From: an uncultured Acidobacteriota bacterium
GTDB taxonomy: Bacteria > Acidobacteriota > Terriglobia > UBA7540
Length of the DNA: 64,000 bases
NCBI GenBank assembly: GCA_963804995.1
Contig: CAWDSK010000002.1
Span: 288,001 to 352,000 of the forward strand
Direction of reading: 5' to 3'
Position numbers and translations under genes: made by a program. Below are positions 16,788 to 45,343 of the stretch, piece by piece (the stretch's first letter is position 1; each line of letters opens with the position of its first letter). The notes below the pieces were generated by a model. The model saw nothing but the letters and a program-made list of their open reading frames with translations, was not told where the DNA came from and ran no database searches.

Positions 16788-17309
16788 ATGTCGCGTCTCC
16801 GCCGCCTCGTGTTGTCCGACCGGTATTTCTTTATCACCTGCCGCGTCCTGCCGCACCGGAAGGCGCTGGAGGAATCCGAGTTTGAGTGCTTGGCCAAGGT
16901 GGTGGCCGAGCGACGGGAGAAGCACGGGTTTCTGCTGACGGCCTGGGTTCTGCTTCCGGACCATTGGCATGCCATCTTCTATCCGCGCTCTCCACTCACC
17001 ATCTCGCGGGTTATGGAGTCCATCAAGGTGGGCGCCACCTCGAAAATCAACAGCGCCCGAAGGGAAAGGGGCCTCCTGTGGCAGCCGCGTTTCTTCGACC
17101 GCGCCATCCGTACCGTGAAGGAATATTACGAGAAAGTGGAGTACATTCACCAGAACCCGGTGAAGTCGGGCTTGGTGAGCCGGGCGGAGGACTGGGCGTG
17201 GTCAAGCGTGCGCGAATACTCGGGGACGGTCCATGCGCCCCTGAGCCCGCACCCTATTCTGACGATCAACCGCGTCACGCTACCGGCGGAGCTGCGAACC
17301 CGGATTTGA
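16788..17309 (+). mobile_element. REP-associated tyrosine transposase (RAYT, HUH Y1 family)
   Basis: FFITC, LPDHWH (HUH), LWQPRFFDRAIR, YIHQNPVKSGLV, DWAWSS; flanked by REPs. Confidence 0.92.
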
Positions 17310-42297: not shown

Positions 42298-42863
42298 CTA
42301 AAAGCTTTCGTCCAGGCTGATCTCCGTGAGGATCTGGTTGAGTTGGTCAGTGGCCTGCTGATTCTTGCCCTGCAGGTCGGCGAGTTGGCTGCGCAGCGCG
42401 GCGAGGCGGTCTTCCTGCACATCCAACTGGTGCGTGTAGCGTTGCAGCAGGGATTTTTCCTCCGGGCTTCCCTTGAGCGCCTTCATGTTCTCGCGGATGC
42501 GCCCCTGGTCAGCCGTAATCGAGTCCACTTCCTGCTGGCGCGATTTCAACTGCGCGTCGAGCCCCGCGATCACCCCCTTCTGGTCCAGCACGCGCTTGAA
42601 CGCCTGTTCCATGGCCGGCGTCAGACGCTTCTGCTCAGTCAGCACGGCGATGTATTCGCTTGAGACGTTGCTCAGCACGATTTCCGCGGTCTCGGGATGA
42701 AACTCCTCCACCACGAGTTGTGCACCCTTCTTCGCTTCCACCGGCACTCGGAAGCGATAGAGGGATGCTGTCGTCTCGTCCGGCTTCACGCCGTCAGCGA
42801 GCTTCCAATCCTCGCGCGCCGGGTGCTCGATGATGACCACGCGCGCCGTCGTGTCAGAGGAGC
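42298..42863 (-). pseudogene. C-terminal fragment of a DUF4139-like coiled-coil protein, truncated at a REP
   Basis: VIIEHP...YRFRVPV...DQGRIRENMKAL; protein-like sequence begins exactly at the REP edge and the 5' part is absent. Confidence 0.65.
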
Positions 42864-42996
42864 GTAGCGCGGACCTCCGTTTTTGAGGTCCGCGGCCCTT
42901 CCTGCGAAAAATCACAGATGACCATGAGGGGGGCTGCCCGCGGATTCGGTAGCGTGAACTTAAGGAAGAGCCGCAGACCTCAAAAGCGGAGGTCTG
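42864..42996. repeat. Inverted pair of GTAG REPs (REPIN); second REP split by the intron
   Basis: GTAG-CGCGGACCTC-cgttttt-GAGGTCCGCG at 42864-42898; gagccgcagacctcaaaagcggaggtctg|cgctac completed at 44910-44915. Confidence 0.85.
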
Positions 42997-44909
42997 GTGC
43001 GCCGGGATAAACCGGCAGAAAGCAGAGAATGAAAATTTCTCACGAGGAAGGAGCAGCGATCCACTCGGCCCCGAGTTTTGCGCTGGGCGTCGTGAGGCGC
43101 ACGGTGAAGCGTAAACAGGGGAATAGGTGGGCTGGGTATTGAGCTTCGAAAATGTCCAATCAGGACGCCGACGTTTTCAGACTAAACGGAAGGCAACATG
43201 AGGCCGGGACGCCAACGCGAGTTCCGGCACAGTCCTGCGTAGTCGTAGACCCCAGACACGCCTAGACACTTTCTGCACGAGAACCGGGAGACCTCGGAGG
43301 CGCCGGCCGCCGTAGATCGTGGCCGGACGGCGGGAAAAGGCGATGGCCGTACAGCCCGCCTGCACGCTTTCGAGGAGTCGGACAGCGGAACAGTACCGAT
43401 GAATCATTTGAACAAAGACGGGAAGCCGTTGGCGGAGAATGAGGAGGGAAGGCCGCTGATCAAGGAGAACACCCGTTGGCCTAACACGCACCCGACACAG
43501 AGCGGGGCACGCGTGTCCCAGGGACTCGCGGGTGTGCGGAAAGCCGCGAAGGAACACAGGGAGATGAAGTTCACGGCCTTGCTCCACCACTTAACGGTCG
43601 ATCTGCTGCGGGAAAGCTTTTACGCCTTGAAGCGAAAAGCTGCACCGGGAGTAGACGGCATGACGTGGCAGGAGTATGAAAGCGGGCTGGAAGGTCGACT
43701 CGTCGATCTGCACAGCCGGGTCCACCGCGGAGCATTCCGAGCGAAGCCCTCGCGAAGGGCGTATATCCCGAAAGGCGACGGGCGGCAACGTCCGTTGGGG
43801 GTTGCGGCACTGGAGGACAAGATCGTCCAACAGGCCGTGGTCACCATCCTCAATGCGATTTACGAGGAAGACTTTCTGGGCTTCTCGTATGGCTTTCGAC
43901 CGGGATGCAGCCAGCATCAAGCGCTGGACGCGCTCTCGTACGCGCTCACGGTGAAGCACGTGAACTACGTTCTTGACGCGGACATTCGTGGATTTTTCGA
44001 TTCGATATCCCACGAATGGATGCTCAAGTTCGTGCAGCATCGCGTCGCCGACCCCCGGATTCTCCGGCTCATCCAGAAATGGCTGAAAGCCGGGGTGAGG
44101 GAGGAAGGCGAATGGTCGGAGACGGAGATGGGTACGCCACAAGGGGCGGTGGTCTCGCCCCTGCTGGCGAATATCTATCTGCACTACGTCTTTGACCTGT
44201 GGGTGCAGGCGTGGCGCAAGAAGCACGCCCGGGGAGACGTGGTCGTGGTGCGGTATGCCGACGATACGGTCCTTGGATTCCAATCGCAGACGGAAGCCGA
44301 CCGCTTTCTGGAGGATTTCCGGGAGCGGGTGGGGAAGTTTGGATTGGAACGGCATCCTGACAAAACGCGCCGGATCGAGTTCGGGCCGTTTGCCGAACTT
44401 TACCGGAAACGGAGAGGAGAAGGTAAGCCGGAGACGTTCGACTTTCTGGGCTTCACGCATATCAGCGGGAAGAACCGGAGGGGGCAATTTACCGTGAAGC
44501 GGAAGACGATCAGCAAGCGCCTGCGGGGGAAGTTGCAGGAACTCAAGCAACAACTCCGGCAGCGTCGGCACGATCCCATCGCGGATACGGGTAAATGGCT
44601 CCGGTCGGTCGTGCAAGGCTACTTCAACTATCACGCGGTACCGGGAAACCTCGACCGCCTGCGAATCTTTCGGGAACGGTTGACCCGACTGTGGCGAACA
44701 CAACTGCGTCAACGCAGTCAACGCCACCGCCTCAACTGGGACCGACTGGGGAAGCTTGCGGCCTGCTGGTTGCCTGCTCCGCACGTTGTGCATCCTTGGC
44801 CATCCCAACGGTTCGCCGCCACACATCCGAGATAAGAGCCGTATGCGCTAACCAGCGCACGTACGGATCCGTGCGGGGGGTACCGGGTAACCGGTATCCC
44901 TACCGCAAC
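42997..44909 (+). mobile_element. Complete group II intron (1913 nt)
   Basis: 5' GTGCG; domain V gAGCcgtatgcgctaaccagcgcacgtacggatc; domain VI ending ccctaccgcAAC; RT ORF inside. Confidence 0.93.
43399..44835 (+). CDS. ltrA: Group II intron reverse transcriptase/maturase (no endonuclease domain)
   Basis: AAPGVDG, RPLG, SYGFRPG, GTPQG, RYADD, FDFLGF, GYFNYH; exact start uncertain. Confidence 0.95.
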   Translation: MNHLNKDGKPLAENEEGRPLIKENTRWPNTHPTQSGARVSQGLAGVRKAAKEHREMKFTALLHHLTVDLLRESFYALKRKAAPGVDGMTWQEYESGLEGRLVDLHSRVHRGAFRAKPSRRAYIPKGDGRQRPLGVAALEDKIVQQAVVTILNAIYEEDFLGFSYGFRPGCSQHQALDALSYALTVKHVNYVLDADIRGFFDSISHEWMLKFVQHRVADPRILRLIQKWLKAGVREEGEWSETEMGTPQGAVVSPLLANIYLHYVFDLWVQAWRKKHARGDVVVVRYADDTVLGFQSQTEADRFLEDFRERVGKFGLERHPDKTRRIEFGPFAELYRKRRGEGKPETFDFLGFTHISGKNRRGQFTVKRKTISKRLRGKLQELKQQLRQRRHDPIADTGKWLRSVVQGYFNYHAVPGNLDRLRIFRERLTRLWRTQLRQRSQRHRLNWDRLGKLAACWLPAPHVVHPWPSQRFAATHPR

Positions 44910-44915
44910 CGCTAC

Positions 44916-45010
44916 ACTGGCGCCGTCACTCAGCAATCGAGAGAGATTGTCGTAAGACGTGTCCACACCATTCGGCCGCGTCAGGGAAGTCCGCCGCCCC
45001 GCAAAGCTCG
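44916..45010 (-). pseudogene. Short RHS/YD-repeat remnant
   Basis: Minus frame AGRRTSLTRPNGVDTSYDNLSRLLS resembles a YD repeat. Confidence 0.45.
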
Positions 45011-45244
45011 GGGTTAGGGATTCGGGGTTGGCGATTGGGGGGTGGCGCATACGTGGCGTATTTTGACATGTATGCGGTCACTACGTTTGGTTTATGTGTA
45101 GCGGTTGCGAAGAGACCCCTCATTCGTTTTTCAGCACCCCACTTTTATCCTTTCAGCACCACCGGCCAATCCCTTGTTCAGCACCACCGCATTATTCCCT
45201 TTTCAGCACCACCCCGGCGCTCTGAGCGCCACCCCTCCTCATCT

Positions 45245-45343
45245 GAGGCGGTCTCACAACTAGCAAATTCACGGTTTTTACGACGAATAATCAATAACTT
45301 ACGCTGTGCAAAAGTCAGAAATACCTAGTTTTGAGACAGCCTC
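45245..45343. mobile_element. 99-bp MITE with 19-bp imperfect TIRs and 4-bp TSD (ATCT), inserted in a palindrome
   Basis: atct|gaggcggtctcacaactag...ctagttttgagacagcctc|atct. Confidence 0.75.

Follow-up and report, generated by a model that had tools for sequence, protein, structure and literature searches.

The intron and the repeat that it interrupts

The DNA analysed here, a window of 64,000 nucleotides from one contig of an uncultured Acidobacteriota bacterium, contains a 1913-nt group II intron (42997 to 44909, forward strand, as are the other window features unless stated otherwise) that splits a repetitive extragenic palindrome (REP) of the type accompanying REP-associated tyrosine transposase (RAYT) genes. 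The 5' part of the interrupted REP, on the inverse-REP strand, lies at 42970 to 42996. Its 3' part at 44910 to 44915 comprises intron-binding site 3 (IBS3, a C), the base of the stem and the complement of the GTAG foot. An intact GTAG-REP at 42864 to 42898 is the inverted partner, so that the two form a doublet resembling a REP doublet hairpin (REPIN) or a bacterial interspersed mosaic element. Excision of the intron in silico rebuilds the hairpin (−11.5 kcal/mol), with all of the scored bases of IBS1 (42991 to 42996; five of six scored) paired. An earlier reading of the window (hereafter the sequence-only reading) had placed the intron at the same coordinates and had proposed that its removal restores the partner of the intact REP, and both points were correct.

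The ends of the intron, GTGCG at 42997 and AAC at 44909, are common to the 38 full-length copies in the genome. The segment from 43032 to 43252 matches Rfam family RF02005 (group-II-D1D4-6) with 170 bits, the sole Rfam match in the window, and the unconstrained fold of 42997 to 43400 has a z-score of −3.3. Open reading frame (ORF) and profile searches located the intron-encoded protein (IEP), a predicted reverse transcriptase (RT)/maturase of 478 amino acids with a YADD motif (43399 to 44835) that scores 339 bits against TIGR04416 (cut-off 300). RVT_1 was its sole Pfam match, with no HNH match and no endonuclease domain detected, and its ORF ends at domain V. Domain V (44836 to 44869, 34 nt) carries an AGC triad at 44837 to 44839 and a non-GNRA loop, and domain VI (44872 to 44907) has a bulged A at 44902. 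Exon-binding site 1 (EBS1, CAGACU, 43178 to 43183), preceded by the delta U at 43177, lies in the d3 loop of the Rfam match and pairs with all six bases of IBS1 (one G-U pair). The sequence-only reading had identified both this EBS1 and the AGC triad, and hence a non-IIC intron, correctly. Covariation and occupancy placed EBS2 (UGUC) at 43153 to 43156, opposite target positions −12 to −9 (IBS2, 42985 to 42988), and covariation placed EBS3, a single G at 43245, opposite the C at +1.

Forty copies in two REP families

The genome carrying this intron (G000; 7.55 Mb in nine contigs, C1 to C9) contains 40 copies at >99% identity, 38 of them full-length and two cut by contig ends. The 37 copies of equal length comprise 31 distinct sequences with 0 to 6 differences from the consensus, and the ORF, EBS1 and EBS2 are intact in all of them; a single-base frameshift is present in one additional copy. 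Every copy with both flanks readable (37/37) occupies the same nucleotide register of a REP hairpin, with C at +1, G at +2, C at +3 and A at +5 invariant in the target, and the remaining three, at contig edges, show one REP half. Tandem intron copies lie at two contig ends (C6:2168574-2172663 and C7:1-3886), and several contigs break inside or beside the intron.

REPs in this genome are short palindromes with a tetranucleotide foot, arranged in inverted doublets, and number 200 with a GTAG foot and 49 with a CTGG foot. Introns occupy 22/191 sites of the GTAG-foot family (0/9 of its minor variant) and 13/49 of the CTGG-foot family. Both families adjoin RAYT genes that pass NF047646 (C5:58401 and C6:722270), with an intron copy in a REP beside each gene, and an inverted partner REP was found within 260 bp of 30 of the 40 insertions. 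The association with REPs is not due to chance: across the genome 5173 sites are compatible with EBS1 and EBS3, and the 38 occupied ones (including a contig-edge copy that matches at +1 by chance) all belong to the 884 with an inverted arm, compared with 0/4289 without one. The sequence-only reading had further proposed that REPs may serve as a renewable safe harbour, so that one mobile element would parasitise another. In a crude test of safe-harbour insertion, 4/40 insertion points fell in stop-free frames of at least 600 nt, compared with 262/400 random positions.

These 37 copies, together with two congeners and many metagenome relatives described below, support the core claim of the sequence-only reading, that an endonuclease-less, non-IIC intron targets multicopy RAYT-type REPs, and the feature itself is confirmed. 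That reading had also likened the target to the REPs at 16.5 to 17.6 kb, around the RAYT in the window (16788 to 17309, NF047646 above cut-off). The architecture is the same, but the sister subfamily flanking this gene has a mismatch to EBS1 at −5 and contains no intron (0/60 occupied), equally a hairpin though it is, and the cognate RAYTs are paralogs elsewhere in the genome. The window RAYT was accordingly ruled out as the source of the intron's target.

Guide pairing and strand bias

Our analysis of guide sequences and targets revealed that EBS1, EBS2 and EBS3 covary with the sites they pair with, and that pairing largely explains which REP is used, on which arm and how often. Among 29 distinct EBS1 sequences of relatives, 136/145 pairs with −6 to −1 were Watson-Crick (47±6 when shuffled), a figure inflated because boundaries in this set were chosen by pairing; the match can also be seen in a set with boundaries defined solely by the GUGYG motif. 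EBS2 against −12 to −9 gave 121/232 Watson-Crick pairs over 58 EBS1/EBS2 combinations (shuffled 59±6, with 0/2000 shuffles as high), and a second peak of 102 at −13 to −10 came from lineages with a shifted register. This register-by-register test, by locating a 4-nt EBS2, ruled out that EBS2 had been lost and replaced by hairpin reading. EBS3 is G in 56/56 rows with C at +1, and the 14 rows with another base at +1 comprise 9 with a compensating change, 3 with a wobble pair and 2 with a mismatch; five rows of this comparison were read by eye. The rows in these covariation tests are related and do not represent independent events.

Occupancy follows the same pairings. On the G-rich contig strand, introns fill 16/32 sites with full EBS1 and EBS2 matches, 8/17 and 3/13 as EBS2 weakens to three and two of four pairs, 3/11 where EBS2 is fully matched but EBS1 has one mismatch, and 0/34 where both are weakened. 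The mirror site on the other REP arm offers IBS1, IBS3 and the hairpin and is never occupied (0/194 and 0/43, together 0/237); the C at −10 needed by EBS2 is present in 0/142 of the mirror sites checked. Recognition is mostly by pairing of EBS1, EBS2 and EBS3.

Occupied sites also favour the G-rich contig strand 31:4, compared with 82:132 for free sites (Fisher 1.7e-8), and on the four contigs with clearer skew the ratios are 25:1 and 56:102. If the G-rich strand is taken as the leading-strand sequence, the intron would enter the template of the lagging strand, like RmInt1. What the genome itself shows is the number of copies, their fixed register, covariation in three pairings, occupancy graded by pairing and the strand bias.

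Probable retrohoming into REPs and its alternatives

The most probable explanation, in our view, is that a recently expanding class E-like (IIB) intron retrohomes into REPs by canonical guide pairing, given the fit of its guide sequences to the REP consensus, probably with protein readout and fork-coupled priming. Within the intron ribonucleoprotein (RNP), EBS1, EBS2 and EBS3 (6, 4 and 1 nt) would base-pair with the inverse-REP strand in its 3' arm, and the protein would probably also read positions +2 to +5 of the 3' exon, which complement the GTAG or CTGG foot. Reverse splicing would take place into the single-stranded lagging-strand template, where the nascent lagging strand would serve as primer, as in RmInt1. 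Some 250 intergenic REPs would provide many cheap sites and so lead to 40 copies, and point changes in EBS1 or EBS2 could switch the target among multicopy repeats, with REPs gained or lost several times within the family. The intron is predicted to splice, to be mobile and to be harmless to its host, as well as to use fork-coupled priming and reading of the 3' exon by its protein. The mechanism itself is probably conventional; what is new is the kind of target and the test of EBS2 that the genome provides.

Several observations weigh against this explanation, and pairing alone is not enough. Sites that match all three EBS positions in the absence of a REP 3' exon are empty on both strands (0/246 and 0/221), compared with 24/52 and 4/67 filled when the REP 3' exon and inverted arm are present. 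Sites with the right 3' exon and no inverted arm are empty as well (0/4 and 0/5 on the two strands), and in a weight-matrix test at its loosest score 37/263 sites were occupied vs 0/30 arm-less sites (p=0.02), with non-significant results at three stricter scores (0/12, 0/6 and 0/3 arm-less sites occupied). The inflated EBS1 count counts against it too, as does the leading-strand assignment, which rests on a weak contig-level GC skew; when a local 150-kb skew window is used, agreement falls to 29/40 copies. Protein readout, the hairpin and selection against genic insertions are inseparable in these data. Protein readout of +2 to +5 would be the simplest addition to pairing, and the proteins of RmInt1 and RmInt2 have been described as reading distal exons (PMC4615759). 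No result points to an IIC-like reading of the hairpin; a need for the hairpin itself, or selection against genic insertions, is possible.

Alternatively, the RNP might require not just pairing but also a folded REP, either the stem-loop or the stem together with its GTAG foot; a class E intron would then have converged on structure recognition of the IIC type. IBS1 is part of the stem in the folds of all 37 occupied sites, arm-less matching sites are empty (the 0/30 at the loosest threshold and the 0/9 above), REP use recurs in several lineages, and the target is folded in 32/52 metagenome relatives with this EBS1 type vs 9/59 other homologs. We nevertheless consider such a requirement unlikely, given that hairpins with poor EBS1 or EBS2 matches are never used, that 82-85% relatives home to unstructured repeats, that 15/52 relatives with this EBS1 type have no inverted arm, and that the arm test loses significance at stricter scores; moreover, with IBS1 inside the stem, folding would compete with pairing.

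The avoidance of long open frames (4/40 vs 262/400) would also be consistent with pairing alone at any EBS1/2/3-compatible site, followed by purifying selection that purges non-REP, mostly genic, insertions, and selection-driven dynamics have been argued for bacterial introns (PMC3522654). This is improbable: 0/467 pairing-compatible sites with a non-REP exon are occupied, some of which must be intergenic, positions +2, +3 and +5 are invariant in 37/37 targets, and the copies are very young (0 to 6 differences from the consensus). The location of 30/40 copies within REP doublets, the contigs that end in or beside the intron and the tandem copies could suggest that an intron-bearing REPIN spread as cargo moved by a RAYT, or that copies are an assembly artefact and not independent retrohoming events. 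Flank diversity already contradicts this highly implausible scenario, since flanks vary in loop, spacer and foot and involve two REP families; the 37 copies include 31 different sequences, free REPs show the reverse strand bias, and congeners keep the register with other EBS1 variants. Retrohoming by guide pairing remains the explanation that we favour.

Intron class

The intron is likely a class E (IIE), IIB-type intron, an assignment that rests on one inferred class E reference. A direct search of the pRmeGR4b record with the IEP returned a disrupted RT at 57% identity (E 1.9e-121) and a second RT at 35%, which we take to be S.me.I4 and RmInt1, respectively, names inferred from PMC5894124. 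In an IEP tree built with this single class E reference and without class F/g or C references, the window IEP and the disrupted RT separated with bootstrap 100 from RmInt1 and three other RTs of G000, so the phylogeny suggested by the sequence-only reading for assigning the class yielded a class E-type grouping. RTs with solved structures, which we presume to belong to other classes, match the IEP far more weakly (~1e-39). The absence of a detected endonuclease domain and exon recognition through EBS1, EBS2 and EBS3, as indicated by covariation, are class E traits. In the fold of domain V of the window intron, the distal stem has 6 bp and is capped by a non-GNRA loop of 4 nt, unlike the 5-nt loop described for class E by Nagy et al. 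2013 (PMC3753933), and two plasmid relatives have 5-nt loops as judged by eye. Class C (IIC) was rejected on the basis of the AGC instead of CGC triad, the 34-nt domain V, the 6-bp EBS1 and a covarying EBS2 that predicts occupancy. Other RT families in G000, some multicopy, show 32-36% identity and lie at C9:153936-154739, C6:293962-296970, C5:1086931 and 1126081, C3:1125753, three places on C1, and C4:160691.

Relatives and retargeting

Homology searches yielded 79 loci at 63-93% identity, of which 59 were non-redundant and mappable (identical flanks from more than one search were counted once), and 9/59 had a folded target. The nearest relatives (92-93%), plus one at 83%, are in REPs. Most relatives at 73-78% (most of L005-L008, L020-L024, L029 and L032-L078) occupy an imperfect palindrome of ~31 bp, in either orientation and with at least three EBS1 types, which looks like a tyrosine-recombinase site; other relatives at 73-85% lie after a TGAAAA-containing repeat. 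Since most of the 73-85% relatives are in non-REP repeats, REP use represents repeated retargeting and is not a trait of the family. The REP targeting put forward in the sequence-only reading extends to the nearest relatives but belongs to sub-lineages; homologous introns in unrelated non-REP targets were an outcome that this reading had named as refuting it, and that outcome is partly observed.

A metagenome scan for this EBS1 type, blind to flanks, gave 91 loci, of which 63 were mapped and 52 were non-redundant. An inverted arm was present in 37 of the 52, by a loose and hence weak test with a background of 33% (4447/13416) and 21/59 positives among mapped homologs, and IBS1 was folded in a stem in 32. 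Of the 15 metagenome relatives that had no inverted arm, eight insert at a G-rich target; three of these eight were placed in the tree, where they form a distant 51% lineage. This lineage (51% IEP identity where measured; L080, L082, L091, L130, L131, L146, L151, L164 and L165) has a near-identical EBS1, and its insertions lie where a G-rich repeat ends that lacks an inverted arm. Many REP-targeting relatives (among L002, L012 and L083-L140) have an extended 5' end, with G and 1-3 extra bases before GCG in place of GUGCG. In contigs from four public sequencing runs, mostly holding relatives, no exon-exon or lariat joint was seen.

A search of 81 family genomes that was blind to EBS1 found matches in 34; the 29 best loci provided 27 junctions, 7 of which were judged by eye to be REP-type; among these are variants with an EBS1 suited to different REP families. 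One of the 27 junctions comes from the unpublished genome G290 and is used for none of the conclusions. The GTAG-foot family occurs in all five congeners tested (10-136 copies) and the intron junction in two of them (6 and 3 copies). In one congener (G302) EBS1 is CGGACU and six target sites end in CCG. The exact pattern of this EBS1 loop was found in 2/401 genomes, including G000, and misses variants such as that of G065. On a quick IEP tree of 45 rows, 12 REP-labelled rows need 6 changes of target, in either direction, at least 5 of them forced by well-supported branches; part of these 6 changes stems from degenerate REPs that the rule used left unlabelled. The 45 rows were retained from 92 after removal of near-duplicates, most rows with Xer-like targets, outgroups and pieces <300 aa, and from the tree in which metagenome relatives were placed, tips L089, L090, L123, L132 and L150 were dropped because they carried an unrelated RT.

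A more far-reaching scenario would be that class E introns of Acidobacteriota repeatedly became specialist parasites of RAYT-REP systems, reading the folded REP or foot in addition to sequence, retuning EBS1 and EBS2 as REPs diverge, and pulling REPs from the RAYT-replicated pool by splitting the GTAG foot from the stem. We offer this intron-REP-RAYT coevolution tentatively, as a possibility that we consider rather unlikely.

Two 5' remnants of sister introns were observed in other REP families of G000 (C1:441116 on the reverse strand and C5:460087 on the forward strand). One, with EBS1 CAGAGC, sits in a CTGG-foot family found beside the RAYT-like genes at C2:467480 and C3:777560, and the other directly follows a GTAG foot, in another register; junctions of both types are also present in other genomes (L199, L218, L211, L239 and L240). 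Further related introns or remnants (G000 C2:652257, C1:206552 and C6:842676; L003, L011, L017, L030 and L232-L234) mostly follow a repeated TGAAAA-containing motif, and the intron at C6:842676 has a different target and EBS1.

Comparison with known systems

The class E introns S.me.I4 (Sinorhizobium meliloti pRmeGR4b) and Cl.be.I2 are described as having, like the window intron, no endonuclease domain, an AGC triad, a 6-nt EBS1, EBS2 and EBS3 (PMC5894124, PMC3753933). The window intron is unlike them in its 40 near-identical copies in one genome and in the REP targets of all readable copies. According to Nagy et al., class E/F splicing can do without EBS2, for which they suggested a function in homing (PMC3753933); the present data provide genomic evidence for EBS2 in class E homing, a question left open by Nagy et al. 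2013. RmInt1 and RmInt2 of S. meliloti (class D, IIB3; PMC4615759) share with it the lack of an endonuclease, three EBS pairings, a relaxed EBS2, a fork orientation bias and homing into repeated mobile DNA, in the case of RmInt2 the inverted repeats of insertion sequences (IS). They differ in IEP class, in the target, which here is a ~35-bp non-autonomous REP and not an IS, and in copy number (7-10 vs 40).

Introns of class IIC at terminators and attC sites also have no endonuclease, use many sites per genome and have a palindromic target, and are characterized in these accounts by a CGC triad, an EBS1 of 3-4 bp, no EBS2 and a stem-loop upstream of IBS1 (PMC1702495, PMC7923331). In contrast, the window intron has an AGC triad, a 6-bp EBS1, an EBS2 and IBS1 inside the stem, and hairpins that lack the sequence match are unused. 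A fixed insertion point in REPs, with the REP rebuilt on removal of the element, has been described for IS1397, IS621, ISKpn1, ISPpu9/10 and ISPa11 (PMC1525189). Those elements use DNA transposases, whereas the window intron would be an RNA-guided retroelement, the guide of which can be read and traced through evolution.

We found no description of a group II intron in REPs in the literature passages and listings consulted, although supplements, subscription papers and the intron database may list such flanks, and a term search of the GTAG-repeat survey (PMC3733652) did not return the word 'intron'. REPs would join IS elements, terminators and attC sites as refuges of bacterial group II introns. 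REP targeting would account for the high copy number, 40 compared with a maximum of 29 copies of one intron reported among 90 Enterobacteriales genomes by Leclercq and Cordaux (PMC3522654). One genome with ~250 graded natural targets constitutes a ready-made homing library, and the filling of about half of the ideal sites makes a test of saturation vs selection possible. Within the family, single guide changes are seen to move the intron between repeat families. Each insertion should also take one REP out of use as a substrate of the RAYT, with implications for the turnover of REPINs.

Surroundings of the REP doublet

The REP doublet in the window is flanked on one side by an ORF on the reverse strand (42298 to 42861) that starts at the REP, appears 5'-truncated, has no other copy in the genome and gave no significant Pfam match. 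On the other side is a weak RHS-repeat fragment (44916 to 45050, reverse strand, E 0.07), and the site is possibly a rearrangement junction. Further 3' of the intron, positions 45035 to 45260 hold a multicopy non-coding repeat with many genome matches at 75-97% identity and short tandem CAGCACC units.
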